Below are positions 7,393 to 63,659 of a stretch of 64,000 bases of DNA, piece after piece. The DNA comes from Bordetella parapertussis (lineage in GTDB: Bacteria; Pseudomonadota; Gammaproteobacteria; Burkholderiales; Burkholderiaceae_D): positions 53-64,052 of the forward strand of contig CAMBFZ010000019.1 of the NCBI GenBank assembly GCA_945866125.1. The letters are read 5' to 3'. Under the pieces are notes generated by a model. The model was not told the DNA's origin and searched no databases. It was given only the letters and a program-made list of their open reading frames with translations. Position numbers and translations under genes: made by a program. The stretch's first letter is position 1; each line of letters begins with the position of its first letter.

Positions 7393-7395
7393 GCC

Positions 7396-8571: not shown

Positions 8572-8635
8572 GGTCTGATGAGGTAGGTGAAATAAGATAA
8601 TGCAGTGCCCGCAAGCAGGCAGCAGCGCGGTCGGG

Positions 8636-15954: not shown

Positions 15955-16189
15955 TGCACGGCACCTTATGCAAGGGGTTCCCGTCATGCTCGATTCGCTG
16001 CATGTCTGACTTTTTTCTTATTGAAATGGCGGTCAGTTATTATTCACGATCGCCCATCGTGCGGATTAATTTATTGGCATCGTTGGTGGATGACCGGCCG
16101 ACCCGTATCTAATTAGCTCGCCCCAGTTTGCAGGCCACGCAGCGGGCTTGTGCTATCAAAAAAATAATAATTTGTCAGGAGACAATTGT

Positions 16190-25647: not shown

Positions 25648-25649
25648 GA

Positions 25650-28328: not shown

Positions 28329-28350
28329 GGCGCAGGTCTTGGGTCTGTTC

Positions 28351-31300
28351 TTATCGTCTCAGGTCTAACGTGAACGGATGTTCGCGGCTTGCAGCAGCAT
28401 CAATATTGGGCATCATATCGGATAGCACACCCGGGGTATGGCCCATACGGAAGAAGCGACCCAGTCGGCGGGCCTCGGCTTCGTAGGCATTGACGGGTAG
28501 GTTGTCATAACTTAAGCCGCCCGGATGCACGACATGATACTGGCAACCACCGACTGAGCGCTTCATCCAGGTGTCGACCAGATCAAATATCAGCGGCGCA
28601 TGCAGATCAATACTGGGATGCAGACTCGAGGGCGGGTTCCAGGCTTTGTATCGTACGCCGGCGACAAATTCGCCGGTGGTGCCGCTGGATTGTAGTGGCA
28701 CCGGGCGGCCGTTACAGGTGAGGCAATAGCGGCTTGCGTTAAAGCCGGTCACCCTGACTTCGACGCGTTCAAGCGAGGAATCGACATAGCGTGCAGTACC
28801 GCCGGCAGTGCTTTCTTCGCCCATTACATGCCAGGGTTCCAGCGCGTGGCGCAAATGCAGCGTCATGCCCATGCTGTCCAGACTGCCGATACGGGGGAAA
28901 CGGAATTCCAGATGCGGTGCAAACCATTCGGGCTTGAAGGCAAAGCCGCTTTGCTGCATCTCGGTGATGATGTCGTTAAAATCCATCTGCACAAATGCCG
29001 GCAACAAAAAGCGATCATGCAGCTCGGTTCCCCAACGGGTTACAGGGGCGCGATAAGGCGTAGCCCAAAAACGCGCAATCAGCGCGCGCAGCAGCAGCTG
29101 CTGCACGATGCTCATGCGCGCATGCGGCGGCATTTCAAAGGCGCGCAATTCAAGTAAGCCGAGGCGGCCGGTGATACTGTCGGGTGAATACAGTTTATCG
29201 ATACAAAATTCACTACGATGGGTATTGCCGGTGACGTCGATCAGAATATTTCTGAGCGTGCGGTCGACTAGCCAGGGAGGTAACTCGTCTTGGTGCTTGT
29301 CACGATGGGCATAAATTTCACGCAAGGCGATTTCCAACTCATAGAGTTGATCATTGCGCGCTTCATCAACGCGCGGTGCCTGACTGGTGGGGCCGATAAA
29401 CAACCCGCTAAACAGATAGGACAGGCTAGGGTGGTTATGCCAATACAAGATCAGGCTGGCTAATAACTCGGGCCGGCGCAAAAACGGACTATCTGCAGGG
29501 GTAGCGCCGCCCATCACAAAATGATTACCGCCACCGGTGCCGGTGTGACGGCCGTCGGTCATGAATTTTTCCGCAGACAAGCGCGACTCAAACGCTGCCT
29601 GATATAAAAATTCCGTGTGCGCGACGATCTCGTTCCAGTTGTGGGCCGGATGAATATTCACTTCAATGACGCCAGGGTCGGGCGTGACTTGCAATAGCTT
29701 CAGGCGCGGGTCGCGCGGTGGTGGGTAGCCTTCCAGCACAATCTTGAGTTGTAATTCTTCGGCCGTGGCTTCCACCGCTGCGAGCATGCGCAGATAATCT
29801 TCAAGCCGTGCCACCGGCGGCATAAATACATAAAGTGAACCGGTTTTTCCGCCGAATTCTTTTTCGGCTTTGGGGCCGTTCGCGCGCATTGGATCGCGCG
29901 TCTCGACACAGAGCGCGGTACGGGCAACGCCAACCGCGGAGGTAAATTTTTCCGGTGCGATGTCTGCGGCTGCAACGCTTGTGGCAGTCTTTGGTGCATC
30001 GATCGTGTGCGGCTGACTGCGCACATTGACCGTTGCAGGTAACGGCGGGCGGGGCGCAAATGGGTCTTGCTCAATCAGGTACGGATAGTCTGATTTTTTT
30101 ACCCACGGTAGCGCATCAAGCGGCAGCCGGTAGCCCATGGGCGAATCACCCGGCATCAAAAAAAGCCGATCGTCGCGGAAATGCCAGGGTCCGGTGGTCC
30201 ATGCTGGTTCATCGTTCTCGACGGATTCGGCGATTTGCAGTGGCAGCGCGTAGCCAACCACAGACTCGAGCTGCTGCAAAAATACGCGCCGCAGTCGGGC
30301 ACGATCAAGCGCATCGTCAAGGCGGGAATCAAGCGCATCGACATTGACCGGCAGGCGCGCCTCGCGCCATTGATAATAAAGTGCGTCTTCAAAAGCCGGA
30401 TGAATGTAGGCATCGGTCAGGCCGAGCTTGGCCGTCAGGACATGGATAAAACGTTTGGCATCATCGGCCGTATAGACCATAGGTTCGGCTTCATTGGCAA
30501 ACAAAGCCGGGTTGCGCCAGACCGGTTTGCCATCAGCGCGCCAGCAAATCGACAGCGCCCAGCGCGGCAATTGCTCACCGGGGTACCACTTGCCCTGACC
30601 GTAATGCAAAAAGCCACCGCGGCCATATTCATCACGCAGTTTATTGACGAGTTCGGTTGCATAGCCCCGCTTGGTCGGACCGAGCGCGTCCGTGTTCCAC
30701 TCAGGCTCATCGCGCCCCTGTGCCGCCACGAAGGTTGGCTCGCCTCCCATGGTCAGGCGCACGTCACCGGCCTCGAGCTGGTGGTCGACAGCGGTACCAA
30801 GCGCGATGATGTCGGCCCATTGTTCGTCGCTATAGGGTTTAGTCACGCGGGGCGACTCGACAATGCGCGTAATGTTCATCGCATGGCGGAAGGTCACCTC
30901 AGACTCGTCGACGCCGCCTTCGATTGGCGCTGCGCTGGATGGTTCGGGTGTGCAGGCCAAGGGGATATGCCCTTCGCCCGCGAGCAGACCTGAGGTGGGG
31001 TCCAGTCCGATCCAGCCCGCACCGGGCAAATAGACTTCGCACCAGGCATGCAAATCGGTGAAATCAACATCGGTGCCGCTGGGGCCATCCAGTGATTTGA
31101 CATCCGGTTTAAGTTGAATCAGATAGCCCGACACAAAGCGGGCGGCGAGCCCGCAATGGCGGAGCAAGTGCACCAGCAGCCAGCCACTATCGCGACATGA
31201 GCCGCTGCGTTTGGTTAGGGTTTCTTCGGGCGATTGCACGCCGGGTTCGAGGCGCACCAGGTAGCGAATATCTTGCTGCAGTTGCTGATTGATTTTGACC

Positions 31301-31734
31301 AGAAAATCAATCGTGCGCATCGTGCTGCGGTCGATCGTTTTAAGGTAATTTTTGACACTCGGTGCGGCACAACCCACCTGCAAATAGGGCCCCAGTTCTT
31401 TTGTTAGGGTGCGACTGTAGGCGAAGGGATAATTCTCGGCATCGGGCTCGAGGAAAAAATCAAAAGGATTAAACACCGCCATCTCGGCGACGACATCCAC
31501 CGTCACGGTAAAGTGCGTGGTTTTTTCAGGGAAGACCAGACGGGCCTGATAATTCGCGAACGGGTCTTGCTGCCAGTTGATGAAATGGCCAGTCGGTTCG
31601 ACCTTGAGGGAGTACGACAGAATCTGGCTGCGGCTATGCGGCGCAGGTCGTAGCCGAATCACTTGCGGACCTAATTCAACCGGGTGATCGTAGTGATATT
31701 CGGTAACGTGATGCAGGGCGATATGGAGGGACAT
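28351..31734 (-). CDS. Large transglutaminase-like protein with DUF2126 domain
   Basis: 1127-aa ORF starting MSLHIALHHVTEYHYDHPVELGPQVIRLRPAPH. It has the core motifs SGSCRDSGWLLVHLLRHCGLAARFVSGY, HAWCEVYLPGAGWIGLDPTSG and a long C-terminal DUF2126-like region. Confidence 0.85.
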   Translation of the reverse strand: MSLHIALHHVTEYHYDHPVELGPQVIRLRPAPHSRSQILSYSLKVEPTGHFINWQQDPFANYQARLVFPEKTTHFTVTVDVVAEMAVFNPFDFFLEPDAENYPFAYSRTLTKELGPYLQVGCAAPSVKNYLKTIDRSTMRTIDFLVKINQQLQQDIRYLVRLEPGVQSPEETLTKRSGSCRDSGWLLVHLLRHCGLAARFVSGYLIQLKPDVKSLDGPSGTDVDFTDLHAWCEVYLPGAGWIGLDPTSGLLAGEGHIPLACTPEPSSAAPIEGGVDESEVTFRHAMNITRIVESPRVTKPYSDEQWADIIALGTAVDHQLEAGDVRLTMGGEPTFVAAQGRDEPEWNTDALGPTKRGYATELVNKLRDEYGRGGFLHYGQGKWYPGEQLPRWALSICWRADGKPVWRNPALFANEAEPMVYTADDAKRFIHVLTAKLGLTDAYIHPAFEDALYYQWREARLPVNVDALDSRLDDALDRARLRRVFLQQLESVVGYALPLQIAESVENDEPAWTTGPWHFRDDRLFLMPGDSPMGYRLPLDALPWVKKSDYPYLIEQDPFAPRPPLPATVNVRSQPHTIDAPKTATSVAAADIAPEKFTSAVGVARTALCVETRDPMRANGPKAEKEFGGKTGSLYVFMPPVARLEDYLRMLAAVEATAEELQLKIVLEGYPPPRDPRLKLLQVTPDPGVIEVNIHPAHNWNEIVAHTEFLYQAAFESRLSAEKFMTDGRHTGTGGGNHFVMGGATPADSPFLRRPELLASLILYWHNHPSLSYLFSGLFIGPTSQAPRVDEARNDQLYELEIALREIYAHRDKHQDELPPWLVDRTLRNILIDVTGNTHRSEFCIDKLYSPDSITGRLGLLELRAFEMPPHARMSIVQQLLLRALIARFWATPYRAPVTRWGTELHDRFLLPAFVQMDFNDIITEMQQSGFAFKPEWFAPHLEFRFPRIGSLDSMGMTLHLRHALEPWHVMGEESTAGGTARYVDSSLERVEVRVTGFNASRYCLTCNGRPVPLQSSGTTGEFVAGVRYKAWNPPSSLHPSIDLHAPLIFDLVDTWMKRSVGGCQYHVVHPGGLSYDNLPVNAYEAEARRLGRFFRMGHTPGVLSDMMPNIDAAASREHPFTLDLRR

Positions 31735-39457: not shown

Positions 39458-39940
39458 CTATTTCTGCTGAGCGCCAGCGGAGAAATCGTTGGCCTCGAAT
39501 TCTAATCGAATGCGACCTTCTAACTCATCAAGCCGAACCCGGTGTTCGCCCTGGGCAAAATAATCAGCAAAGCCAATAACGGCAAATACCTGCTTCTCGC
39601 AGAAGGGTTTGCCCGGCACGGTCTTGGACTCGCCTGGCGCTAACTCCCAGCTCCGGCTATGTAAGGCATTGGGATAAGTTTTGAGCAAACTATCTTTTGC
39701 CGCAAACCAGTCTGCTGCTTTCATCCCGAGTATTTTGTCAACCAAGGCCGGCTCATAAATTGTGACGATATCGACCGCTAACGGGAAATTCATATTGATC
39801 GCCGGCGGCATATTAAACGTGACGGTATCCCACTTGAGCGCCTTCCCGGGCGGAACGACAGCGTTTTTTACGCTTTGAAAAACACTACAGCCTACTAACA
39901 GCAGACCGGCGAGTAGTGTGATTGCTGTGCGCATTGTCAT
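39458..39940 (-). CDS. tssJ: Type VI secretion lipoprotein TssJ
   Basis: MTMRTAITLLAGLLLVGCSVF contains a lipobox. At 160 aa and positioned upstream of tssK, tssL and tssM, it fits TssJ. Confidence 0.75.
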   Translation of the reverse strand: MTMRTAITLLAGLLLVGCSVFQSVKNAVVPPGKALKWDTVTFNMPPAINMNFPLAVDIVTIYEPALVDKILGMKAADWFAAKDSLLKTYPNALHSRSWELAPGESKTVPGKPFCEKQVFAVIGFADYFAQGEHRVRLDELEGRIRLEFEANDFSAGAQQK

Positions 39941-40140
39941 GGCTTGCTGGCGGGCGCTGGCGCCGATTTTTCAGTGGCTGTCGTCGCGACCATTTGGGGA
40001 GTCTGTTTTTCACTCGTCTCTATCAGCACCGAGCGCCGTCCTATTTCAAAACCAAACAACACCAGCAATGCCATGGCCAACAACACGCAGATAACGCAAA
40101 TGGTAATCAGGCGCGGCGTAAGAGAAAGATTGAGATTCAT
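39937..40140 (-). CDS. 67-aa single-pass membrane protein, translationally coupled between the DUF4280 gene and tssJ
   Basis: ATGA overlaps occur at both ends (40137-40140 and 39937-39940). The sequence is MNLNLSLTPRLITICVICVLLAMALLVLFGF... with a polar A/P/T-rich tail. Confidence 0.55.
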   Translation of the reverse strand: MNLNLSLTPRLITICVICVLLAMALLVLFGFEIGRRSVLIETSEKQTPQMVATTATEKSAPAPASKP

Positions 40141-40526
40141 GCGACCTCCACCGTCATTTGTCCCGGCATTGAAATTTCGATGGAGCCCGCCCACATGCAG
40201 TCGAGCTTGCAGGTGTCTTGCAACGCGGCCATATTGGCGATTTTGACCGTGGGCGAACCCGGGCTCCAGGGTGCGACCGTCATCGGTATGCAGGGCATCG
40301 GCGTCAATGCGCCAAGCGCGGCCGCAGTAGCTGCCGCCACCATTGGATTGGCCATCGATTTGCACATGCCGAAGGGCAGAATATTGAGCATCGGAATATT
40401 GTCCATCACGGTTGCCGCAGGCATGCCCGTCATGACCGCGTTAGCCGGCAATACCATCAAGGTACCGGGCGCCAGTCCCATTGAGCATTTGAGCATTGCA
40501 CCACCGCAGACTTGTTTGGGCATCAT
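40137..40526 (-). CDS. DUF4280 (PAAR-like) domain protein
   Basis: MMPKQVCGGAMLKCSMGLAPGTLMVLP...NILPFGMCKSMANPMVAAATAAALGALTPMPCIPMTVAPWSPGSPTVKI...CMWAGSIEISMPGQ matches the conserved DUF4280 pattern. Confidence 0.85.
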   Translation of the reverse strand: MMPKQVCGGAMLKCSMGLAPGTLMVLPANAVMTGMPAATVMDNIPMLNILPFGMCKSMANPMVAAATAAALGALTPMPCIPMTVAPWSPGSPTVKIANMAALQDTCKLDCMWAGSIEISMPGQMTVEVA

Positions 40527-41146
40527 TACCCCCTAAAAATGGATTCGATCCGACCGGCCAGCGTGGTTTTGCCATCTGCATCAGCCGGTCGTCCTTTTTG
40601 ATCAAAACGCTCTATGTCGCCCACGCGCTGACCTTTTTCGTACTGTGTGCGCTCCATCAGATTGCCGTTTTTCCAATAGTTGCAAAGCGCACCATCGAGC
40701 AGATCATTTTTATACGCGGCGCTTTGCGATACATCGCCTTCGCTGGTGAAGTCCTCGGTCAGGCCTTCACGCAGACCCGCCTGGTAACGCGCAATCCGTA
40801 TCAATTGTCCTTGCGAAAAATATCGCGCCTCGCCTTGCAGGCGACCCGCTTCATAAAATAGCTCTGCTGCGATCATGCCAGGCGGGCCGTAAATCACGGC
40901 TGGCCCATCGAGGACATCATTTTTATATTGCTGCTGCATCAGCAGGCCATGTGCTGAATAAATCGCGCAGCTGCCATTGCGCTTACCACCCGCATAGTGC
41001 GTCTTTTGTTCCAAATTCCCGTTCGCGTCGTAGCTTAAGCTTTCGCCATCGAGCTGCCCTTCACGCAAGACCAGCTCGTGACGCGGGTTACCGTCATCAC
41101 CATGGATGGTCAGGTTGTCGGTTTCAGTGGCGGTGGTGTCGGTCAT
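40526..41146 (-). CDS. MORN-repeat variant (YwqK-like) protein
   Basis: 206-aa ORF with repeated G-x-(x)-Y-x-x-(N/G)-G-x-L units (YDANGNLEQKTHYAGGKRNG, NYWKNGNLMERTQYEKGQRVG). It starts 4 nt after the vgrG stop and shares 1 nt with the DUF4280 start. Confidence 0.75.
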   Translation of the reverse strand: MTDTTATETDNLTIHGDDGNPRHELVLREGQLDGESLSYDANGNLEQKTHYAGGKRNGSCAIYSAHGLLMQQQYKNDVLDGPAVIYGPPGMIAAELFYEAGRLQGEARYFSQGQLIRIARYQAGLREGLTEDFTSEGDVSQSAAYKNDLLDGALCNYWKNGNLMERTQYEKGQRVGDIERFDQKGRPADADGKTTLAGRIESIFRG

Positions 41147-52888: not shown

Positions 52889-54670
52889 GTGCCTGATAAC
52901 GCCAGCGGCAACCCGTCTTTCCTGGTACTCGCTAGCCTGAGTCTGGCCGGTATGCTGGTCGTATTTCCGCACGCGGCGCAGGCGCCGCTGTCGCCTTACG
53001 GGCTGGCTTGGCTGGGCAGTTTGATTGTGTTGGGGGCGGAGCAGTTATTTCGGAGTTGGCGCTGGTCTGAGCAGGGCCGGTTTCCAGTCGATGATTTGCT
53101 GTTGGTGCTGACTGCTGTGCTGTGGTCTATCGGCTTTGCTTTTGGCTGGCAGGTGGCGCCAGCGGGGCTGCAAATTGCGATGACGGTGGCGATTGCTGCG
53201 TTGGTGCTGGTGATGGCGGCGACGTATTACGCCAGGCGCTGGGCTTGTCTGACGGCGATTGCTTTGCTGGGTTTGCCGTGTGCACTTGTTGTGTTGGCGG
53301 CTCCGGGTAGCTTGCCGTTTATGGGAGTGGCGCTGACTATTCTGAGCGCGCTGTGCATGGTGGTGGTAGCCCGTTTCTCACGCTGGATAGATCGCGATGC
53401 GGAAGCGCGGGGCCGTGTTGCAGGTTTGCTTGAACAGGTTGCGCAGCGCAGGCTTGAGTTGCAAGAGGCCGAGATTAACCGTTCGCGTTTTCTTGCCTCG
53501 ATCAGTCACGATCTGCGTCAGCCCATGCATGCCATCAATCTCTATATCGGTAGCATCGAACGTAGTTTGCTCTCGGCACAGCAGGCCTCTGACGAGCGGC
53601 TTCGGGCGTCGGAGAGTGTGCTGCGCTTGAAGCAGAGCGTGGGCTACATGAATGATATTTTCGACAGCCTGCTCGATGTGAGTCAGCTCGATACGGGTGT
53701 GGTGCGGGTCTCGCTGGATCGCGTGCAGGCGCTGCCGTTTTGCAAGCGTTTGCTTGAACAATTTACCCGCACGGCTGAGGAACTCGGGATACGCATTGAG
53801 CTGTGTGGCGAGGGCGCGGAGCAGATTTTTCTGCAGACTGACACGCGTCTGCTAGAGCGGATTGTGCGCAATTTCCTTAGCAATGCGTTGCGCTATACGC
53901 GCAAGGGCGGCATTCGTTTGCGACTACGTGTGCGCGATGGGGTATGCCGCATCTCGGTAGTGGATACCGGTGTCGGTATTCCGATTGCGATGAAGAAAAA
54001 AATCTTTGATGAGTTTATGCGTCTGGATCAATCCGCCAGTTCGCTGGGCTCCAAGGGTGTGGGACTGGGGCTGTCCATTGCCAGAAGACTAGCCGCAAGG
54101 ATTGGCGCGCACATCTCGCTGCATAGTTATGTCGGAATGGGTTCGGTGTTTGCCGTTGATGTGCCGCTGTCGACCAAGCGGCCTTCGCTGCAAGAGCGGC
54201 ATGCGCTACGCGAAGAGCGAATTTTGCAGGCGGTACTGCCCAATATTACGATGAGCCACGCCGAGGACACGCTGCTTGTTTGTCTAGAGACGGATCCGGA
54301 TATCAGTAATGCGATGTCGCTACTGGCACCGGCTTTGGGTCTGCGTTTATTGGTGGCCACCTCAAGCGCCGCCGTCATCGCGGAGCTGGGCCGGTTGCAC
54401 CGGATTCCGGATTTACTTTTGATTGATAGTCAGCTGCCAAGCGAGACTGCACTGCAGGCCTTGGCCAGTATTAATGATGAATTCAACCTCGACATCCCGG
54501 CTATTGTGCTCAGCTCTGATATGTCGATGGAGCTGGCAACGCTGGACAGGTGCTTGCCGGTGACGGTGCTGCAAAAACCGTTTTCGTCGGATCGGCTGCA
54601 TGAGGCGATTAATGCCGGGCTGTCAAAATCCAAGGAACAGAGGGCACAACTGCGGCTGGGGGATTTTTAA
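52889..54670 (+). CDS. Membrane-bound hybrid sensor histidine kinase (HisKA, HATPase and a C-terminal receiver-like domain)
   Basis: 593-aa ORF (GTG start, uncertain) with ~5-6 N-terminal TM helices. It has the H-box SRFLASISHDLRQPMHAI, N/G boxes (RNFLSNALRYT, DTGVGIP, GVGLGLSI), and a C-terminal REC-like fold with LLLIDSQLP. Confidence 0.82.
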   Translation: MPDNASGNPSFLVLASLSLAGMLVVFPHAAQAPLSPYGLAWLGSLIVLGAEQLFRSWRWSEQGRFPVDDLLLVLTAVLWSIGFAFGWQVAPAGLQIAMTVAIAALVLVMAATYYARRWACLTAIALLGLPCALVVLAAPGSLPFMGVALTILSALCMVVVARFSRWIDRDAEARGRVAGLLEQVAQRRLELQEAEINRSRFLASISHDLRQPMHAINLYIGSIERSLLSAQQASDERLRASESVLRLKQSVGYMNDIFDSLLDVSQLDTGVVRVSLDRVQALPFCKRLLEQFTRTAEELGIRIELCGEGAEQIFLQTDTRLLERIVRNFLSNALRYTRKGGIRLRLRVRDGVCRISVVDTGVGIPIAMKKKIFDEFMRLDQSASSLGSKGVGLGLSIARRLAARIGAHISLHSYVGMGSVFAVDVPLSTKRPSLQERHALREERILQAVLPNITMSHAEDTLLVCLETDPDISNAMSLLAPALGLRLLVATSSAAVIAELGRLHRIPDLLLIDSQLPSETALQALASINDEFNLDIPAIVLSSDMSMELATLDRCLPVTVLQKPFSSDRLHEAINAGLSKSKEQRAQLRLGDF

Positions 54671-54757: not shown

Positions 54758-55441
54758 TACATGGCGATTGATGGCCGGTCATGCCCAAGATGCGTGCTGA
54801 AAACGGGGTAAGGCGCAATAACTGCACAAAGCGCTCGAATTGGCCATGTCGAGACATCGGTTAAAAGAAAATGGTCAAAAAATTGGACGACTGAACAGGC
54901 GTCCCAATATTAAGCAACTGGAAAAGCGTTCAGCAACGGCGTTGTCGTGGCAGTTACCACGTTGGCTCATGCTTGGCTGCTGATTGTGTATCTTCAAAAA
55001 CGCTTGCCAATCATAGCTGCTGAATTGACTGCCCTGATCGGCTGCACCACGACGGTAGATTGAGGCTGAGGACGCTACACGGCCATCAGCAGGGCGTTGA
55101 TGGCGAAATCGCGGTCGATGCGCGGTCCCATCGTCCAGCCAGTCACCTGACGCGAGAATAAATCAAAAACGGCAGACAGGAATAGCCAGCCTTCGTGCGT
55201 CCGAATATAGGTGCTGTTCTTGATCCAGGCCCGATTGGGCTGCTTCACATCAAATTGTCGCTGCAGGTGGCTCGGCGCCATGACGGCAGCTCCAGCCAAG
55301 GGTAATAGCCGCTGGGATGAAACACCATCATCTTGCAGAGACGCCGCATTTCCCGGGACGATTCAGATTTTGTCACGGCGCTGACCGCATCCAGCGCTCA
55401 AGTAGCCTGTTCGACGCGGCCATTATAAGAAAATGGCCCAA
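54758..55441 (-). mobile_element. Degraded IS3-family transposase (orfB) remnant with frameshifts, stops and an internal deletion
   Basis: Minus-strand fragments read ...RRLCKMMVFHPSGYYPWLELPS.., HLQRQFDVKQPNRAWIKNSTYIRTHEGWLFLSAVFDLFSRQVTGWTMG, ..DQGSQFSSYDWQAFLKIHNQQPSMSQRGNCHDNAVAERF.., and a decayed ...YPVFSTHLG tail. orfA is absent, as are ~85 aa between the SGYY and HLQRQF blocks. Confidence 0.8.
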
Positions 55442-55677
55442 AAACCGACCAACGTATAAGAGCTTGCGCAAAACAGTGCGTAAAATTGATTGGTGCACTT
55501 CCTTGGCTTGTAATCACTCATTATTTATTTTGTCCATGTTTAAGATGTTTTAACGACAGTTAAAATCGTGTAATGTATGGCCACTGCGAGATATGAACAA
55601 GTTTTACTGTCGACTAAGATCCAATCTAAGTAGTTATCTATCCAATAACATTGAATAATTTAAAAGAGGCGTCCGCA

Positions 55678-58548
55678 ATGTCCCAAGACTTTCAAGCCGC
55701 TAACCAGATTTCTAGTCAGCCAATTACCCGTGACGTTAGCGACAGCGGCGCCATTCTATTTATCGATGGTGACGGAAATTGGCTAGTTGGATCGACAAAT
55801 TCGGCGGTCAAGTCGTACATCGAAATTCATACAGCGACCGATGATAACGTCACCGATGCTACGTTCGGGTTGACGGCACAATCTGTCACAAAGGTAGAAA
55901 CTGGTGGTTATATTTTATATCTTGAAGATACACAGGATGGGGAGTTTTATACCGTCGAAGTGAGCGCCGATGGGGTGTTTGATTTTGATAATGTCACCTT
56001 AATGTCTTCCGATGATATTCATAATTACGAAGAAGACGAGGGTGAAGACATAGACGATTCAGGCAATATTGGTGGTGATGATTGGATCCATGATGACGGC
56101 TATTTAGATATTACCGTCGGCGCCGACGGATCTTATGAAATAACGCGTGAGGATGGTACCTCGGTCATTATTAACTACGACGGCAAACCTATCGACCACG
56201 AATGGTTGACAGACGGTGGTTATGAGCTTTTGGAAGCTGTTCCTGATCCTTCTGCGGTCGATGGTCTGGGCTTTGCGGTTTATGCGTACCATGCTGGATA
56301 TGATTTTGTGTTTACATTATGGTTAGATTCCTCCGGAAACATTACCAATATTCCTTCCAACGATAACGATAACGATAATTGGGAAGATGACGTGGTGATT
56401 AATACCGATACCGATGACGATACGGATATTAATGAAGGTGGCGATACCGATATCGTAACGGGATGGGCCGCTGATCTAAAAACATCGTATCTCCAAACTG
56501 CCCTCACCGAAGGTGGCATGGTTGAAGGCGGCATTACGCATGCCGAGGCAGTATCCCTGTTCCAGGGGCTTGCTTCTGACCTCACGTCTTCCGGCGTATC
56601 GGTTATCAGTGACGATGTAATGCAAGATCTCACGAGTATCGCCGCGCGAGCGGATGGTTTGTTTACGTCAACCAATATGCTCGGAGAAGAAAATAACTAT
56701 CTGTCCAGCGTCGTCGTTGAGCTGATCCACGGGTCTCCCGCGAACGCATTTTATACAGGGGGCGCATCACAACAAACCCAGCTTGGTAATATCGGTGATG
56801 GCACCAGCATTGCGAATTTCGAAAAATTAATTGATAAATGGTTGCTCGGAAAAGATGTGCCGCAGGCATTGACGGGAGGCGATTCGGCTAATCCGGATGG
56901 CACGGGTGCAAGCGGCAACTATAGCGTGATCGACGGCGAGATGTTCATTGATGGCGCAAGCGGTGAAGAGGTGGCGCAGCAAAATATTGGTGACTGCTAT
57001 CTCGATGCGTCCTTTATCTCCATCGCTGAGACAAACCCCGACGCTTTCAAGGCCGCTGCATCAGAAAACGCGTCGGACGGCACCGACAAAACCTGGGGTG
57101 TCCGCTTCCTGGATAACAATGGGCAGTCTTATTGGGTCACCGTCAATAATAAGCTGCCGACCCTATCCGGGGCGGCCAGTGCCACTACAGATGACCTGAT
57201 CTATAACAAGTCAACGACCACCGGTGAATTATGGCCGTCCTTGTTCGAAAAGGCCTACGTTCAAGTTAATGAGACAGGCCTGTTGAAGTCGAGCTCTGGT
57301 AGCGTTAATGCGTATTGGGCCGTTGAGGGGGGGTGGTCGGTGCCCTTGCTGCATATTGCAGGCGGCACATCCATTACGGGCTTTAGTGATTGCATGGACT
57401 ATGGCGCTGTTGAGGATTGGGTAACAGTTACGTCGCTCAATGCGAGTAACATAAATAGTAATATCCAACAGGTAATGAAAGATTTAAATGCAGGTAAGCC
57501 AGGATGGCTAGGCTCATGGTCGCAGATTCCCGGTGCGACCGGCAGCACAAATTTTGTTTCTGGTCACGCGTACTCTATTGTTGATGCGGAGCCGGATAAT
57601 CCATCCAACACCACCGTAAAAATATTTAATCCATGGGGCGTTAATGACGGTTATGGTTGGGAGTCCCCGTTCACGAAAGAAGTGTCCTTTGTCGTTGACG
57701 TTGATTCCTTAAAAAACTTTGGTGTTTTTATTCTGGACTCATCCGCGGCAGTGGTGAGCAGCACCTCCAGCATGACGCCAGCAGACGTTCATGCCTACCT
57801 TGCGGCGGGTAACGAACGGGCTAGCGTGACCGCTGGCGCATTGACAGTAGGAGATGCCTCGGACGATACCTTGGCAGGCGACGGTTTGGCTAACGTCTTA
57901 GTCGGTAAAGACGGCGATGATGCCATCGACGGTGGTGCGGGTAATGACAATTTGCTGGGTGGCGATGGCGCAGATTCGCTCATCGGTGGAGATGGTATCG
58001 ACACCGCTGTGTTCACCGGTGTGATTGCTGATTATCTGATCACGGTTGATGCGGCAGCCTGTACAGTTGTGAATGAGGCCGATTTCAAGCGCACCACCGA
58101 TAGTCTGACATCGGTAGAGAGATTGCAGTTTACCGATTCGTCGCTGGCGCTCGACACGGACGGTAACGCGGGTCAGGTTTACCGTCTCTATCAGGTGTTT
58201 GATCGCGATCCGACTGAGGGCGACACCACAGGTCTGGGCTATTGGATTGCGCAGGTCGATGGCGGGATGGACTTATCGGAAGTGGCTGCACGGTTTATCG
58301 ATTCCACTGAATTCAGCACGACGTATGGTGACAACTTAAGTAATGCCGAATTCATCACCAGCCTCTACGACAACTTTTTAAACAGAACCGCCGACCAGAG
58401 TGGCTTTGACTGGTGGGTGGCGCAGCTTAATACCAATGCAGACACTCGTGCGACGGTGTTGGCAGAGTTTTCCGACTCGGCAGAAAATGTCGCCGCGGTA
58501 GCCAGCCTGATTGTCGGCGGTATTGGATATACCGAGTTTGTAGCGTAA
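55678..58548 (+). CDS. Calpain-like (peptidase C2) cysteine protease fused to RTX calcium-binding repeats and a C-terminal DUF4214 domain
   Basis: ORF 55651..58548; the ATG at 55678 follows AAGAGG. Calpain triad contexts are QQNIGDCYLDASFISIA (Cys codon 56995-56997), VSGHAYSIVD (His 57565-57567) and VKIFNPWG (Asn 57628-57630), plus ELWPSLFEKAYVQV. Four GGxGxDxUx nonapeptides lie at ~57846-58016. The DUF4214-like tail contains VYRLYQVFDRDPTEGDTTGLGYWIAQV...FDWWVAQLN. Confidence 0.8.
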   Translation: MSQDFQAANQISSQPITRDVSDSGAILFIDGDGNWLVGSTNSAVKSYIEIHTATDDNVTDATFGLTAQSVTKVETGGYILYLEDTQDGEFYTVEVSADGVFDFDNVTLMSSDDIHNYEEDEGEDIDDSGNIGGDDWIHDDGYLDITVGADGSYEITREDGTSVIINYDGKPIDHEWLTDGGYELLEAVPDPSAVDGLGFAVYAYHAGYDFVFTLWLDSSGNITNIPSNDNDNDNWEDDVVINTDTDDDTDINEGGDTDIVTGWAADLKTSYLQTALTEGGMVEGGITHAEAVSLFQGLASDLTSSGVSVISDDVMQDLTSIAARADGLFTSTNMLGEENNYLSSVVVELIHGSPANAFYTGGASQQTQLGNIGDGTSIANFEKLIDKWLLGKDVPQALTGGDSANPDGTGASGNYSVIDGEMFIDGASGEEVAQQNIGDCYLDASFISIAETNPDAFKAAASENASDGTDKTWGVRFLDNNGQSYWVTVNNKLPTLSGAASATTDDLIYNKSTTTGELWPSLFEKAYVQVNETGLLKSSSGSVNAYWAVEGGWSVPLLHIAGGTSITGFSDCMDYGAVEDWVTVTSLNASNINSNIQQVMKDLNAGKPGWLGSWSQIPGATGSTNFVSGHAYSIVDAEPDNPSNTTVKIFNPWGVNDGYGWESPFTKEVSFVVDVDSLKNFGVFILDSSAAVVSSTSSMTPADVHAYLAAGNERASVTAGALTVGDASDDTLAGDGLANVLVGKDGDDAIDGGAGNDNLLGGDGADSLIGGDGIDTAVFTGVIADYLITVDAAACTVVNEADFKRTTDSLTSVERLQFTDSSLALDTDGNAGQVYRLYQVFDRDPTEGDTTGLGYWIAQVDGGMDLSEVAARFIDSTEFSTTYGDNLSNAEFITSLYDNFLNRTADQSGFDWWVAQLNTNADTRATVLAEFSDSAENVAAVASLIVGGIGYTEFVA

Positions 58549-58563: not shown

Positions 58564-58586
58564 GGGGGCCGGCTTCGGCCCCCTTT
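58564..58586 (+). terminator. Rho-independent terminator after the calpain-like gene
   Basis: GGGGGCCG-GCTT-CGGCCCCC, an 8-bp GC stem followed by TTT. Confidence 0.65.
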
Positions 58587-58708: not shown

Positions 58709-59962
58709 ATGACTAGCCAAGATAAAGACGAAGCGCTCGCTGAGAATGGCGACCCAGTGGCACAACTACGTGCTGGTTTGTATCATTTAGAACAGGGTGA
58801 ACGTCAGCAGGATTTCAAGAAGGCGCTAAGTTATCTCAGAAAATCTGCAATTCAAGGAAACATCGAAGCGCAATACCACATGGGGTTGGTGCACAAGCAA
58901 GGCAAAGGCGTTGAAGCAAATCCAACGATCGCGCTGAAGTGGTTTTATATTGCTGCTGAAGCTGGGCATAAACAGGCTATTTCTTTGACCCAAAATGGCG
59001 AAACGGGCATGCTTCCCAAGCGGACGAATACCGCAAAAAATCTGTCGAAATATTTTAGTGATGCCGTGATGCTGTACAAAGCTTCAGTCGTCAAAAATAA
59101 ACCAGATTGGCAATTTAAATTGGGATGTTTGTTCGAAGCAGGATTGGGCGTAGATCAGGATTATGCCGAAGCCGCCCATTGGTACAAGTTGGCGTCCGAC
59201 CAAAAACATGACGCGGCGCATGCGGCACTAGGCAAGTTGCATTTTCATGGGCTGGGTGTTGCGAATAGTACGGCCCAAGCGGTCGATTTGTTTACCATCA
59301 GTGCGGCCAATGGGAACGCGGATGGGCAGTACCACTTGGGTTATGCCTATGAAATGGGTATTGGCGTTGAAAAAAATGTAGAAGAAGCCTATCAACTCTA
59401 TTCGCTTGCTGCTGAAAAAGAACATAAGCTCGCATTGCTGCGTTTGGGTTTGATGTTTCGTACTGGTATCGATATCAAGCCTAAGGTCAGTGAAACGGGC
59501 ATGGCGTCCAAAAAAAAATATGGACTCGCATCAAAATACGAAGAGGCGAGAGAGCCGGAAAAAGAGTGGCACTCGCAAGACTTTGAAAAATCCCATCAAT
59601 ATTTCAAAAGGTCAGCAGATAAAGGTAGCCCGGACGCGCAGTATTATCTAGGCACCTTTTATGCGCAGGGACTTGGGATTGCTCAAGATTTTAACGCTGC
59701 AGTCAAGTATTTCAGGCTGGCGGTGGCTCAGGGGCATCCAGAAGCGATGTCCAATCTGGCATTTCTGTACGCGCATGGGCAGGGACTTCTTGCCGATTAC
59801 CTTAAAGCAGCTATGTGGTACGAGGTGAGCAGACGTCTGGGCTATAAAACAATCGAAAAAAACTTGGAATTCGTTTTGAGCAAAATGACGAATGAAGAAG
59901 CGCAGGAAGCCAAAGCACTCGCTGCGCGCTGCATAGCGGAAAATTATCAAGGATACGATTAA
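58709..59962 (+). CDS. Sel1-like repeat protein
   Basis: ORF 58676..59962; probable start MTSQDKDEAL at 58709. It has multiple SLR units (AQYHMGLVHKQGKGVEANPTIALKWFYIAAEAGH, AQYYLGTFYAQGLGIAQDFNAAVKYFRLAVAQGH). No signal peptide is evident. Confidence 0.85.
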   Translation: MTSQDKDEALAENGDPVAQLRAGLYHLEQGERQQDFKKALSYLRKSAIQGNIEAQYHMGLVHKQGKGVEANPTIALKWFYIAAEAGHKQAISLTQNGETGMLPKRTNTAKNLSKYFSDAVMLYKASVVKNKPDWQFKLGCLFEAGLGVDQDYAEAAHWYKLASDQKHDAAHAALGKLHFHGLGVANSTAQAVDLFTISAANGNADGQYHLGYAYEMGIGVEKNVEEAYQLYSLAAEKEHKLALLRLGLMFRTGIDIKPKVSETGMASKKKYGLASKYEEAREPEKEWHSQDFEKSHQYFKRSADKGSPDAQYYLGTFYAQGLGIAQDFNAAVKYFRLAVAQGHPEAMSNLAFLYAHGQGLLADYLKAAMWYEVSRRLGYKTIEKNLEFVLSKMTNEEAQEAKALAARCIAENYQGYD

Positions 59963-60125: not shown

Positions 60126-60791
60126 TCACGCCTTATTCGTAAAAAGCCCCAGACGCTGCGCGACCAGCACGGCTTGGGTGCGGCTGACGACTTGTAATTC
60201 ACGGAAGATCGCCCCGACGTGAGATTTGGCGGTGATTTCGGTGATACCCAAACTGTCGGCAATCTCTCGGTTGCTATTGCCCTGACAAATCATCGACAGC
60301 ACTTGCAGCTGCCGGTCGGTCAGGGTGATGCGCTTGATGCTTGCGCTGTCGGCCGCACCGCTGCTGCTGAGCCATTCGCCGGTTTGCAGTTCACCTTCCA
60401 ACGCGCGCGATACCAGGGAGAGCATGTCTTCCATCGGCGCCCCTTTGCTGATAAAGGCCGACGATCCGGCGCCCAGACAGGCACCAACCTGTAATTCATC
60501 ATCGCTGCCGGAGACGGTGATGATGCTGATTTCCGGGCCCAGAGAAAGTACGCGCCGAATGGCGGCGAGTCCGCCTAAGCCGGGCAGGCCCAGATCGATC
60601 AGGACCCACCAGCGAATTTTTTTTGATTTTTTGAGTGCAGCTTCCAGTAAGGCGATACCGTCTTCGGCGTTGCTGCAGGATTCAACGCGTAATTCCGGAA
60701 AGCGGGTGCGTAAAGCGTCCGCCATCGCCAGGCGGATCATGGGGTGGTCGTCAACGACCAGGAAAGATTGGGCTTTATCCATTGCTGGCAT
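60126..60791 (-). CDS. NarL/FixJ (LuxR-type HTH) response regulator
   Basis: ORF 60126..60869; likely start at M27 (60791) or M30 (60782). The REC domain has FLVVDDHPMIRLAM...VLIDLGLPG. The C-terminal LuxR HTH reads LTDRQLQVLSMICQGNSNREIADSLGITEITAKSHV. Confidence 0.88.
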   Translation of the reverse strand: MPAMDKAQSFLVVDDHPMIRLAMADALRTRFPELRVESCSNAEDGIALLEAALKKSKKIRWWVLIDLGLPGLGGLAAIRRVLSLGPEISIITVSGSDDELQVGACLGAGSSAFISKGAPMEDMLSLVSRALEGELQTGEWLSSSGAADSASIKRITLTDRQLQVLSMICQGNSNREIADSLGITEITAKSHVGAIFRELQVVSRTQAVLVAQRLGLFTNKA

Positions 60792-60901
60792 TTTAACGGA
60801 TGCGGTGGGCTCTTTGGGTGCGGTGCATGGTGGGCTGGTAAAAAATGACCCTGTGCCTTTCCGTATCACCGCCCAAAAGTAATCAGTACAAATTCTGCCC
60901 T

Positions 60902-61375
60902 TCAGATAACCAGACTTAAGCCCAAAAAGATCAGCGCCACCAGCGTGGCGATCAGGGGTGTGGCGCTGGCCGCGGTGTAGCGGCGTGCGTTTTGTGCGAA
61001 CAATTCGGAGGATGCTGGAAGATTAATTTTTTGCACGCCGTCGAGTATCGTTAGCTCGGCGGCAGCGAGTCCGTGCCAGTCAGCTTTGGGTATGTCAAAG
61101 CGGGTATTTGATGCGCGCTCTGGTGCCGCTGCGGGCGTGTGATGCTCCAGAAAATGGTCTTCCGGATAACCCAGCGCGACGGCCAGCCGGCACGCACAAT
61201 GCACCCGATGCGCCTCTTCAATGAAGCCTTGCGGGGCATCGGTCTCCAGGCTTTGTACCTGCTCTTCGGTGAGCCCGGCCAGCATCGCCAAAATACTGAT
61301 ACTCAGGCGGTGGTCTCGACGGGCGCGATGAATTTTTTTTGACAGCACCTGCGCGTTGGTGGTGGGGCTACTCAT
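60902..61375 (-). CDS. XRE-type helix-turn-helix protein with a C-terminal transmembrane anchor (RodZ-like architecture)
   Basis: 157-aa ORF with the N-terminal HTH IHRARRDHRLSISILAMLAGLTEEQVQSLE and the C-terminal TM ATPLIATLVALIFLGLSLVI. Its start overlaps the upstream stop (ATGA, 61372-61375). Confidence 0.65.
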   Translation of the reverse strand: MSSPTTNAQVLSKKIHRARRDHRLSISILAMLAGLTEEQVQSLETDAPQGFIEEAHRVHCACRLAVALGYPEDHFLEHHTPAAAPERASNTRFDIPKADWHGLAAAELTILDGVQKINLPASSELFAQNARRYTAASATPLIATLVALIFLGLSLVI

Positions 61376-62784
61376 GCTGCAGCTCTTTCTTTCAACGCAG
61401 CCGGTGCCAGGGGCGCGCTGGCCCTTGCCAGCCTTGCTTCATCAATCAGCGTGACGCGCACCAGAAAAAAATGTCGGTGGTCAGGCGTGTAGAGTTTTTC
61501 CAGCGCCACGGATATCCCGCCGTCACTGCGCCGCATGAGCCACGCGGTCGCTTTGTTGGTGGCAAGGATGGCATTCTCGAGTTGGGCAATTTCGGTGTCG
61601 TTGTCGGACAAAATCCGCAGCTTGTCCCATAACAGACCGGAGTTGGCATAGCGATCCATGGGCCCCAATAGCGTCGCCCAGGCATCCGACATGGAGATGA
61701 TTGCAAAATGCTGGTCGAGCAGCCCAGTGATTTCATACGCCGCATCGGCGCGAGCCTCGTTGAGCAGTTCGCGCAAATCCCCAAAATCAAAAGGTAGCGG
61801 TTCGAGCATCATGTAATGCAGTCGCTCGGTCTGAAATTCCAGGAGCATGGTGCTGATTTGCAGAATGGCGACGTGCTGATCCGGACGCTGAAACACCGCA
61901 CGTAGTTTTCCGTGGGGCCCCGGCTGCACGGTGAGAAACAGCGCCTCCAGAGTTTGCTCATCGAGTTCAGGGAAAGCCAGAAATTTGCGCGCACCGGCAT
62001 TGGCAAAAACAAGCTTGCCGTCAGAGCGGGCAATGAGCACCATGCCGGGCGATTGATACAGTGCCTGTGACGCGATGCCCAAGCCGTTTTGCAGTGCATT
62101 GGCTTGCTGTACCAGCGCGCGGGAAAGTCGGTCTGCACCTTCGGTGCGGCGCGCTACAAATAAATGCCCGAGTTCTGCCGTGATCAGCAGTTTTAAACCC
62201 AGCCAGATGACGCCGACTGCTTCGAGCAGCCATTGCCTTGGCATAGCCGCGCCAAGTGGCGCGGCAAGTAGCACGACCGTGCTCAGCAGCAGCACCGTTG
62301 CCAGGGTGCTGATGACGGAGAGGGTAGCGAGTGATTTACTGGATTCAACCGATGTTTTGGCGGTTTTGGAGGCTTCGATAGCGATGCACAAATAACTCGC
62401 GCCCAGCATGGCCACAATAATCACGGCACCATTGATAGCAGGGGCTGCGGCCGGCGCTACTTGCGCGGCAATCGCTAACACCACGGCCGCACACACGCTG
62501 AGCAAAATGTGCTGGCGCGCCGGAACCGGTGGCTGCGCCACGCTGCCGGCGAGGCACAGTGCCGAGAGTAATTCAAACCCGGCAAAGCTATTGATATCAG
62601 CCGGTAGCACGTAGAAAAACAAGAGCCATGCGGCCACTGGCTGCACCAGCCCTAGCAAAATAGCCATCCAGCCAAATTGCTCAGAGGTGGTCAGTCTTGT
62701 GTGTTCATGCCGCAGTAAGGCGGTACCGATCAGCCCTGCGCTGCAGAGTAGAAAGAAGGCGACGATGGCGGCTTGAAATTGCAT
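61372..62784 (-). CDS. Polytopic membrane protein with two cytoplasmic PAS-like domains and no recognisable output domain
   Basis: 470-aa ORF with ~6 N-terminal TM helices, then PAS-like segments (GMVLIARSDGKLVFANAGARKFL..., ITGLLDQHFAIISMSDAWATLLG...). I see no H-box, GGDEF, EAL or HTH. Confidence 0.55.
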   Translation of the reverse strand: MQFQAAIVAFFLLCSAGLIGTALLRHEHTRLTTSEQFGWMAILLGLVQPVAAWLLFFYVLPADINSFAGFELLSALCLAGSVAQPPVPARQHILLSVCAAVVLAIAAQVAPAAAPAINGAVIIVAMLGASYLCIAIEASKTAKTSVESSKSLATLSVISTLATVLLLSTVVLLAAPLGAAMPRQWLLEAVGVIWLGLKLLITAELGHLFVARRTEGADRLSRALVQQANALQNGLGIASQALYQSPGMVLIARSDGKLVFANAGARKFLAFPELDEQTLEALFLTVQPGPHGKLRAVFQRPDQHVAILQISTMLLEFQTERLHYMMLEPLPFDFGDLRELLNEARADAAYEITGLLDQHFAIISMSDAWATLLGPMDRYANSGLLWDKLRILSDNDTEIAQLENAILATNKATAWLMRRSDGGISVALEKLYTPDHRHFFLVRVTLIDEARLARASAPLAPAALKERAAA

Positions 62785-62798
62785 AAGCGGCGCGAGCG

Positions 62799-63659
62799 CT
62801 AGCGAGACGGCAAAGGCGCCGCAGAGGGCGCGGCACGCGGTTGCGGCAACGCCGTCAGGGCCGGGTCGAGCGCCGCGGCCTGCATGGTTTGCTCGGTTTC
62901 ATTGTCTTCGTCGGTCTGTAGTGGCACCGCAACCGCTTGCGCGATATTTTCAGGCGCGACGGCGGCTTGAGTAATCCGGTGCGATTGCGTGTGCTGCGCT
63001 AAGGGCGCATCAAGCGCCGGCGTGACCGGCTCCATCATCAGCAGTGCCGCCAGTAAGCCGGTTGCCGATAAGGCCAGCGCTCTGGCCGGCAAGGATATCT
63101 GCCTCAGGCGGCCACAAGCGGCGCGGACCATGCCCGACAGGCGCACTAATCTGGCATCGGGATCGATATCCCAGCGCAGCATGCGGCTTCCCAAAAACTG
63201 TATTTTTCGCTGATCTGCCTGCGGATCAAGGGCGTCAAACAAGGCTACAATCGGCAGCTGCGCACCGAGGAATTCGCCCGCTAATTTCACCATCTCGCGG
63301 AATTCACGCTCCGGCATCGCCGAGGCATTGCGTACTAGCAGTAATTGTTCGCTGCTCGTAGCGAACCTTGCTGGACGCCGCTGACGAGGACCGCTTAAGG
63401 TGTTGTCGGAGAGTGTTGCCAGTGCCTTGTTATAGCGCCGGGATGTCGCTTCGGTGACTAAGTCTGCAAACTGCTCGGGATCATAGTTAAGCACGGTAAG
63501 CCTCTCGCGCTCGTGCAGCCAACATTGCAGCACCCGGACATAACTAAGCAGCTTGCGCGAGTCTGCGCAGACGATCGCTACGTGCAGCGGATCGTCGGCC
63601 AGATAGCGGCAGACGATCGCAAAGTGCTCTTGATCTTCAGGTTGGATAATGGTCGGCAT
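62799..63659 (-). CDS. Hypothetical protein resembling a P-loop-less ExeA/GspA-type AAA fold with a TM segment
   Basis: 286-aa ORF. VAIVCADSRKLLSYV sits where a Walker A would be, and EQLLLVRNASAMP where a Walker B would be. A hydrophobic segment LALSATGLLAALLMM and an A/P-rich tail follow. Confidence 0.4.
   Translation of the reverse strand: MPTIIQPEDQEHFAIVCRYLADDPLHVAIVCADSRKLLSYVRVLQCWLHERERLTVLNYDPEQFADLVTEATSRRYNKALATLSDNTLSGPRQRRPARFATSSEQLLLVRNASAMPEREFREMVKLAGEFLGAQLPIVALFDALDPQADQRKIQFLGSRMLRWDIDPDARLVRLSGMVRAACGRLRQISLPARALALSATGLLAALLMMEPVTPALDAPLAQHTQSHRITQAAVAPENIAQAVAVPLQTDEDNETEQTMQAAALDPALTALPQPRAAPSAAPLPSR

Follow-up and report, generated by a model that had tools for sequence, protein, structure and literature searches.

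A calpain-type cysteine protease domain joined to RTX repeats and a DUF4214 tail in Burkholderiales: a candidate extracellular, calcium-folded enzyme

Introduction

Calpains are intracellular, calcium-activated proteases of eukaryotes, and bacterial relatives are rare. Among the latter, Tpr of Porphyromonas gingivalis is the only homologue that has been characterized biochemically (MEROPS family C2; Rawlings 2015, PMC4631099). Here, we describe a gene for a calpain-like protein in a stretch of 64,000 nucleotides from Bordetella parapertussis (contig CAMBFZ010000019.1, positions 53 to 64,052 of the forward strand), which in its entirety is referred to as the window. The gene (55678..58548, + strand; delimited by its open reading frame (ORF), Pfam and the gene calls of relatives) encodes a protein of 956 amino acids (aa) in which a calpain-type (peptidase C2) domain is followed by repeats-in-toxin (RTX) nonapeptides and DUF4214 units. 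With moderate confidence, we read this sequence as that of a cysteine protease of the calpain family that would be exported by a type I secretion system (T1SS), folded by calcium outside the cell and active; anchoring to lipopolysaccharide (LPS) by DUF4214, suggested by analogy, is possible at lower confidence than export plus activity. The tail-bearing calpain-like protein itself is real, and its domain reading is well supported as an annotation rather than as a new mechanism.

With the bacterial C2 homologues, the window protein shares the catalytic domain, the order of Gln, Cys, His and Asn, the lack of Calpain_III and penta-EF-hand (PEF) domains and a patchy taxonomic spread, and with some of them also the retention of calcium site 1 (PMC4631099), site 2 being not recognizable in its sequence. 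It differs from them in carrying RTX repeats and DUF4214 at the C-terminus, the position used by T1SS substrates. The same survey holds one bacterial calpain with RTX repeats (from Gloeobacter, N-terminal to the protease) and none with DUF4214 (Rawlings 2015, PMC4631099), and neither the N-terminal module of W_rich_C-like repeats and a helical domain nor the Burkholderiales subfamily is described in it. The protease cores of calpain-1 and calpain-2 have in common with the window protein the fold, the catalytic residues, the LW..L.EKAY helix and the ligands of calcium site 1 (equivalents of D106 and E185), and calcium-dependent activation is a likely shared principle. In contrast to these classical calpains, however, the window protein (about 17 % identity) has a shorter PC2 subdomain past the Asn and no recognizably conserved site 2 ligands, lacks C2-like and penta-EF-hand domains as well as a small subunit, and is predicted to be extracellular; its calcium dependence would come mainly from the RTX block and the other accessory modules.

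Described systems with a similar overall plan are the serralysin-type exoproteases (AprA, PrtA-C, serralysin) and the RTX lipases, in which a catalytic head likewise precedes a C-terminal RTX beta-roll in an acidic protein without Sec signal. They end in an uncleaved signal, the counterpart of which is putative in the window protein, whose head is a calpain-type cysteine protease and not the zinc metalloprotease of serralysins; furthermore, the window contains no adjacent T1SS or inhibitor gene, and DUF4214 follows the RTX block. One relative, P0021 from Pseudoduganella, combines a serralysin head with an RTX-DUF4214 tail. The tail itself has a precedent in Psh of Pseudomonas putida KT2440 (RTX followed by C-terminal DUF4214), a non-enzymatic phage-receptor shield that is exported by a T1SS and binds the LPS O-antigen; the cargo attached to DUF4214 tails is varied and includes peptidases, with no mention of calpain (bioRxiv 10.64898/2026.09.02.748959). 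The likeness between Psh and the window protein is one of domain order, RTX to C-terminal DUF4214, and whereas Psh has no enzyme domain, the N-terminal repeats, helical domain and protease of the window protein amount to about 700 additional aa. Lastly, the N-terminal repeats resemble W_rich_C proteins of cyanobacteria and proteobacteria in their period of about 110 aa and a DLNGDG-type loop, but have lost the conserved Trp residues of the latter.

The protease core

The protease core spans aa 414-690 (56917..57747, + strand) and, as read from Pfam, Foldseek and alignments with calpains, belongs to the calpain type, its Gln/Cys/His/Asn set being intact and invariant in the family. With the Pfam profile Peptidase_C2 (PF00648), the match extends over aa 421-666 and profile positions 39-252 of 297, at 59.6 bits (cutoff 23.8) and E 3.5e-16. 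The original prediction had named three catalytic contexts and a calpain-like helix, and all of them are present and align with solved calpains, namely QQNIGDCYLDAS (C440), SGHAYSIV (H630), IFNPWG (N651) and the helix ELWPSLFEKAYVQV. By alignment, Q434 (codon at 56977..56979) corresponds to the oxyanion-hole residue Gln109 of calpain-1, C440 (56995..56997) to the catalytic nucleophile Cys115, H630 (57565..57567) to the catalytic His272 and N651 (57628..57630), followed by an invariant PWG, to the catalytic Asn296 (all on the + strand). These four residues are invariant in 76 of 76 distinct homologues, and so are W519, E524 and P652.

Comparison with solved structures led to the same family. 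The protein directly matches calpains 1, 2, 3, 5, 8 and 9, and the family profile matches the protease cores of calpain-1/2/3/5/8/9 in the PDB with E values from 2e-13 to 1e-7. In a Foldseek search with the AlphaFold2 model (mean predicted local distance difference test (pLDDT) 65 over the full length, about 75-85 in the protease), the top PDB match was the core of human calpain-1 (7w7o, E 7.3e-9), with a TM score of 0.54 normalized to the target over 343 columns at about 17 % identity. No other clan-CA family was found in the PDB by Foldseek at E<1e-3; the only other PDB matches of the full model were RTX domains of T1SS lipases, serralysins and CyaA.

Calcium site 1 of calpain-2, as defined in PMC4631099, is formed by I89, G91, D96 and E175. 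At the level of aligned sequence, the equivalents in the window protein are I424, G426, E431 (Asp elsewhere in the family) and E517, of which D/E431 is kept in 76 of 76 homologues, E517 in 73 and G426 in 63. Some bacterial calpains keep only site 1 (Rawlings 2015, PMC4631099), which agrees with a window protein in which site 2 is not recognizable. Calpain_III (C2-like) and penta-EF-hand domains gave no Pfam match in it at E<0.1. Between orthologous genes (the window gene and that of locus L087), synonymous divergence (dS) is 0.13, and the ratio of nonsynonymous to synonymous divergence (omega) is 0.13 for the gene as a whole and falls to 0.07 in the protease core, which points to purifying selection on a working enzyme.

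The RTX and DUF4214 tail

The core is followed by an RTX beta-roll at aa 723-779 (57844..58014, + strand), recognized by Foldseek, by a match to the RTX blocks of CyaA in the comparison with solved structures and by a Pfam score just under its cutoff. Six consecutive units in nonapeptide register were counted at aa 725-778, three of them canonical, where four repeats had been reported before. Beside the block lies a beta-strand segment (aa 780-811; 58015..58110, + strand), which is apparent from the secondary structure of the model and is kept in RTX-bearing relatives. Two helical DUF4214 units occupy aa ~812-939 (58111..58494, + strand; PF13946, 95.3 bits in two stretches, the best at aa 870-939), in line with the DUF4214 tail of the original prediction. 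The C-terminal ~57 aa (58375..58545, + strand) comprise a putative uncleaved T1SS signal; the protein ends in ...GYTEFVA, i. e., an acidic residue and three hydrophobic residues resembling protease- and lipase-type endings, and this ending is kept in both members of the tandem pair to which the gene belongs (paralogues A and B, see below). DUF4214 is the most conserved region between these two.

The protein is strongly acidic (isoelectric point 4.05, 16 % Asp+Glu) and contains 3 Cys in 956 aa, a composition that fits RTX exoproteins. Neither a signal peptide nor a transmembrane segment is apparent, the highest 12-aa Kyte-Doolittle mean within the first 60 aa being 1.0; the absence of a Sec signal peptide had been noted from the letters alone.

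The N-terminal module

On the sequence evidence, the N-terminal region is composed of two divergent W_rich_C-type repeats and a helical domain. Repeat 1 (aa ~15-135; 55720..56082, + strand) is a beta-sheet unit with a helix that ends in the DxDxSG-type loop EDIDDSGNIG (AlphaFold2 pLDDT >90, with profile matches). Repeat 2 and an acidic low-complexity linker follow at aa 136-262 (56083..56463, + strand; model and profile), a stretch that is the most diverged one between A and B, and the model is disordered at aa 229-262. The helical domain ahead of the protease (aa 263-395; 56464..56862, + strand) is conserved in the family and modeled with pLDDT ~85, and it has no match in Pfam or the PDB. In a dedicated model of the N-terminal region (pLDDT 78, first domain >90), two beta-rich units of about 110 aa each close with a helix and an acidic loop. 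A highly acidic N-terminal region of about 430 aa had been proposed, and this applies to aa 1-262, where Asp and Glu amount to 23 %, but not to aa 263-420, where they make up 12 %; the N-terminal ~420 aa as a whole form a conserved folded module. The first ~420 aa also align with ~30 %-identical proteins that carry no RTX or DUF4214 tail.

An exhaustive hidden Markov model (HMM) search of 1.84 billion representatives with a profile built from aa 1-262 retrieved 542 proteins, 60 of them at E<=1e-30. Many of the 542 carry 4-10 tandem copies, with E values down to 1e-90. All 40 of 40 sampled hits are matched by W_rich_C (PF07483) over the same stretches, and these sampled W_rich_C proteins additionally carry RTX (12/40) and serralysin (9/40) domains. 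The consensus of the W_rich_C unit reads GY.V.W...G.Y..W..D..G...L...E..F..DLNGDG.IG. In the window protein itself, aa 1-420 gave no match to W_rich_C or any other Pfam family at E<1, the repeats being too diverged. Foldseek with the N-terminal model returned nothing at E<1e-3 and only weak similarity to beta-propeller blades (DPP4, Sec12), and a word-indexed profile search with the RTX-free alignment added almost no members. The W_rich_C repeat is essentially uncharacterized in the literature; by its sequence, the DxDxDG-type loop of the repeats suggests calcium binding.

Family distribution and domain architectures

When 185,579 species genomes were scanned for two motifs of the family, 78 loci were obtained. 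Full-length relatives, with the N-terminal module and C2, are nearly all from Burkholderiales (Comamonadaceae, Rubrivivax, Aquabacterium, Giesbergeria and others), the N-terminal module being common to ~70 mostly Burkholderiales proteins; in homologues from Cyanobacteria and Planctomycetota, the shared part is confined to what follows from aa ~260-340 on. The architectures range from stand-alone members of ~690 aa, which have no RTX, DUF4214 or signal peptide, through 1.5-kaa forms in which helical domain and C2 are followed by RTX and six DUF4214 copies (L024, L031, L034), to giants of 2.3-3.4 kaa with an embedded module (L025, L027, L032, L033, L035, L081). Duganella sp. LX20W encodes a C2+DUF4214 protein of 1447 aa. 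DUF4214 is not always C-terminal, since one member of a tandem pair in a Burkholderiaceae metagenome-assembled genome (L007, 9536-15188) carries an N-terminal copy together with SWM_repeat before the module.

The combination of C2, RTX and DUF4214 had been put forward as undescribed. This holds for the searchable literature, in which no paper describing the combination and none joining calpain-like enzymes with type I secretion was found, and a review of RTX proteins lists no calpain-type enzyme (PMC3034196); it does not hold for databases, in which the architecture recurs in several Burkholderiales lineages, always unannotated.

Among the cyanobacterial homologues, seven calpain loci (L053, L054, L062, L068-L070, L076) are followed at a distance of up to about 100 nt (<=~100 nt) by a conserved, Pfam-less ORF of ~160-190 aa, a candidate cognate inhibitor or partner. 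Four others (L056, L065, L079, L080) precede a protein of ~280 aa with weak SurA_N/rotamase matches.

Probable route of export

RTX repeats are a hallmark of the T1SS, and RTX blocks need millimolar calcium for folding and have been reported only from exported proteins (PMC3034196). The original prediction had left open whether export would proceed by a T1SS or by the neighboring type VI secretion system (T6SS). Genes of relatives favor the former: the C2+RTX+DUF4214 genes of L031 and L034 are directly followed by a HlyB-like ATP-binding cassette (ABC) transporter gene (TIGR01846, 601 and 596 bits, the best model although below its cutoff). In L031, a T1SS adaptor of the HlyD family comes next (TIGR01843, 306 bits against a cutoff of 209), and the corresponding gene of L034 was placed by its BLAST cluster with the HlyD of L031, with no profile score. 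The giant of L035 adjoins an LssB-type ABC gene that exceeds the 693-bit cutoff with 821 bits, as well as a HlyD gene scoring 375 bits, and that of L025 an LssB-like ABC gene at 632 bits, below the same cutoff. A gene of the HlyD cluster was found within 10 kb of 4/19 RTX-bearing loci as compared to 2/61 RTX-less loci (one-sided Fisher p 0.026, for loci that are not phylogenetically independent). T1SS export is likely, judging from sequence, because T1SS genes adjoin relatives of the same architecture, linkage to the T6SS is only local, T6SS-effector domains were not found and Psh offers a precedent; retention at the surface is plausible.

Candidate transporters of the window and of a relative were rejected. 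The trio at 4282-9904, which includes HlyD_D23 and OEP genes (7396-9904), is an AcrB/CusB-like/OEP pump of the resistance-nodulation-division (RND) type with no ABC gene, and the NHLP-type ABC genes beside the short homologue of L011 were judged unrelated to protease export.

Proposed mechanism and alternative explanations

In the low-calcium cytoplasm, the RTX block would be unfolded, probably along with the DxDxDG-like loops and calpain site 1, and this state would keep the enzyme inactive and competent for secretion. A T1SS encoded elsewhere in the genome would recognize the C-terminus and export the protein C-terminus first, whereupon extracellular calcium would fold the RTX beta-roll and the remainder and switch the enzyme on. 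The DUF4214 units may then retain the protein at the cell surface via the LPS O-antigen, as in Psh, and the N-terminal repeats, the most divergent part between the tandem paralogues A and B, would probably bind a target or substrate. A more far-reaching version, which we consider unlikely as a whole, would combine these elements into a calcium-switched extracellular calpain that is kept inert by site 1, the DxDxDG-bearing W_rich_C repeats and RTX until T1SS export and is then held on LPS by DUF4214 as a surface protease, with the differing N-termini of A and B aimed at distinct proteins of phages, predators or competitors.

Several points weigh against an exported and active protease. The Pfam HemolysinCabind profile, proposed as a check on the repeats, reaches 21.4 bits and stays just under its cutoff of 23, although the repeats match the CyaA RTX blocks at E 8e-18. 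RTX block and DUF4214 are modeled poorly (pLDDT below 50-70), and the putative C-terminal secretion signal is a matter of pattern resemblance only. As the original prediction had stated, the 64-kb window holds no T1SS genes (ABC, membrane fusion protein or outer membrane protein), and a 740-aa ABC transporter just past its end, as seen in the syntenic locus L001, was dismissed as the missing component, being cyanophycin-associated (NF052233). In the protease, calcium site 2 (E292, D299, Q319, E323) is not recognizable and no conserved acidic positions were seen after N651, because the segment past the catalytic Asn is shorter and variable; HMMER leaves the site 2 region unaligned. Furthermore, the core module is not always exported in this way, since the ~690-aa members have no RTX, DUF4214 or signal peptide, and it could work inside the cell. 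Finally, the evidence from Psh stems from a single preprint on a distant protein and applies by analogy.

That the protein is instead an effector of the neighboring T6SS, with the Sel1-repeat protein encoded downstream as its immunity protein or chaperone, appears very improbable. A complete T6SS core is indeed encoded at 31950-52748 (- strand; its TssC is nearest to those of Paraburkholderia and Cupriavidus, at 73-75 %), and the protease gene, whose product has no signal peptide, lies ~3 kb from tssB at the edge of this cluster in a lower-GC, strain-variable cassette that resembles effector/immunity islands in its tandem paralogues and optional small partner. The adjacency suggested originally is accurate in so far as the core is nearby, but the protease gene lies on the other strand and is set apart from the cluster by a hybrid histidine kinase gene, a 209-aa ORF and 1 kb of intergenic DNA, and no functional link was found. 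The immediate neighbors are the histidine kinase, Sel1 and LuxR genes; PAAR, VgrG, Hcp, Rhs and MIX-type domains gave no Pfam match at E<0.1, and there is no adaptor gene nearby. The adjacency recurs only in near-identical syntenic contigs and is absent for the relatives P0006, P0014 and P0018; relatives outside the species group are not beside a T6SS and several are beside a T1SS, the system of which RTX repeats are a hallmark (PMC3034196). T6SS adjacency is local synteny only, and the Sel1 gene is missing from strains L001 and L085, which keep paralogue A. An intracellular regulatory protease akin to eukaryotic calpains, in which the RTX and EF-hand-like loops would sense calcium and which might be connected with the histidine kinase and LuxR regulator encoded on either side, would be compatible with the many RTX-less and signal-peptide-less ~690-aa proteins that contain the core module, with the conserved calcium site 1, and with the position of the cassette between histidine kinase and response regulator genes in all strains examined. 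We nevertheless regard it as rather unlikely: the folding of RTX blocks at millimolar calcium, known only from exported proteins (PMC3034196), the company of secreted or surface proteins in which DUF4214 and W_rich_C repeats occur, the extreme acidity and low Cys content, which fit an exoprotein, and the T1SS genes beside relatives of the same architecture all run counter to it.

A structural or adhesive surface protein, i. e., an S-layer- or Psh-like coat whose protease serves only for self-processing or release like the cysteine protease domain of MARTX toxins, is another doubtful candidate. The module sits mid-protein in RTX giants of 1.5-3.4 kaa (L025, L027, L035, L081), L031 combines a weak RsaA_NTD match with six DUF4214 copies, and Psh is itself a non-enzymatic surface shield. 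However, the stand-alone ~690-aa forms offer no obvious target for processing, widely diverged members strictly retain the catalytic residues and the substrate-cleft helix, the serralysin heads found on the same RTX-DUF4214 tail (P0021) are true exoproteases, and no cleavage site is known. An extracellular calpain-family protease exported by a T1SS remains our preferred reading.

The gene and its variable cassette

The 956-aa ORF predicted on the + strand was found as described, with an ATG at 55678 and a stop codon ending at 58548. This ATG is preferred over an in-frame TTG at 55651, an unlikely start, because a Shine-Dalgarno-like AAGAGG (55664..55669, + strand; read from the sequence) lies 8 nt before it and the gene calls of related genes begin at the same Met. 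The region had been called a low-GC islet, which is correct for 55500-56500 (upstream DNA and the first ~800 bp of the gene, guanine + cytosine (GC) 0.42-0.44) and for the Sel1 gene (0.47) but not for the rest of the protease gene (0.51-0.53); the flanks have 0.55-0.59. A GC-rich, terminator-like hairpin of 8 bp (58564..58583, no strand assigned) begins 16 nt past the stop codon, between the protease and Sel1 genes.

The gene is part of a cassette that is flanked in all strains examined by a hybrid histidine kinase gene on the left (52889..54670, + strand; Pfam, 99.3 % identical to the copy in L001) and a LuxR/GerE-type response regulator gene on the right (60126..60869, - strand; Pfam, 98.8 % identical to the L001 copy). 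In its full form, seen in L087-L089 and in the pair L093+L097, the order is histidine kinase, A (977 aa), B (955-956 aa), Sel1 and LuxR, and the window gene is paralogue B. L001 and L085 contain A only, the window and L086 contain B plus Sel1, and L095 contains Sel1 and an A gene with a B-like 3' end that looks like an A/B recombinant. At the position of paralogue A, the window carries a degraded remnant of an IS3-type transposase (54875..55376, - strand; frameshifted rve fragments, E 9.7e-7 on a 74-aa fragment, and weak rve_3) with the sequence SMSQRGNCHDNAVAERF, which is absent from L001, L087 and L095. One or more of A, B and Sel1 have been lost in related strains, and many of the metagenome contigs stop within a cassette gene.

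Between A and B, the W_rich_C-like repeats are most diverged (45-54 % identity) and the C-terminal tail least (87-91 %). The L001 protein is 68 % identical to the window protein next to flanking genes with 99 % identity, as a hypervariable allele under diversifying selection might be; this interpretation was rejected, since L087-L089 and L093+L097 show A and B in tandem, true B orthologues are 96 % identical to the window protein and omega is 0.13. The L001 gene is the tandem paralogue A.

The Sel1-repeat protein (58709..59962, + strand; Pfam) has 417 aa from its ATG, seven Sel1 repeats and no signal peptide, and looks cytoplasmic. Its gene occurs with either paralogue (present, for example, in L095 and L097), and Sel1 is not an obligate partner, since the strains that retain A alone are without it. 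It is not a duplicate of the 509-aa Sel1 protein encoded at 22965-24497 (- strand), with which it shares 27 % identity at the level of the repeats only.

Other genes in the window

The region directly downstream of vgrG (39458-41146, - strand) encodes a MORN-repeat protein (40526-41146) and contains a 160-aa ORF unmatched in Pfam; as candidates for T6SS cargo or adaptors, both are more plausible than the calpain-like gene. Beside tssA, a cluster at 24715-31734 (- strand) encodes a transglutaminase-like protein, a circularly permuted ATP-grasp + Alpha-E protein and a transglutaminase with a DUF2126 amidoligase, and represents a conserved, poorly understood operon of the peptide-modification type. 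Three conserved genes at 60902-63659 (- strand; 157, 470 and 286 aa) have no Pfam match, and in L001 and L097 this trio has the LuxR regulator gene on one side and two cyanophycin synthetase genes on the other. Additionally, at 16148-20664 (+ strand), the gene for a 1073-aa fusion protein, in which LolA_like and DUF1329 regions are joined to an MMPL/RND-type transporter, precedes that for a DUF1302 protein.

Implications

The locus and its family of ~80 genomes place a calpain core within a bacterial kit for calcium-dependent export and display, composed of RTX and DUF4214. If confirmed, the RTX exoproteases, which so far comprise metalloproteases and lipases, would gain a class of cysteine proteases, a functional setting would emerge for the widespread but uncharacterized modules W_rich_C and DUF4214, and a tractable bacterial system would become available for the calcium gating of the calpain fold. 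Should the more far-reaching calcium-switched version hold, the protein would give the Psh shield an enzymatic equivalent and provide a model for the origin of calcium control in calpains.

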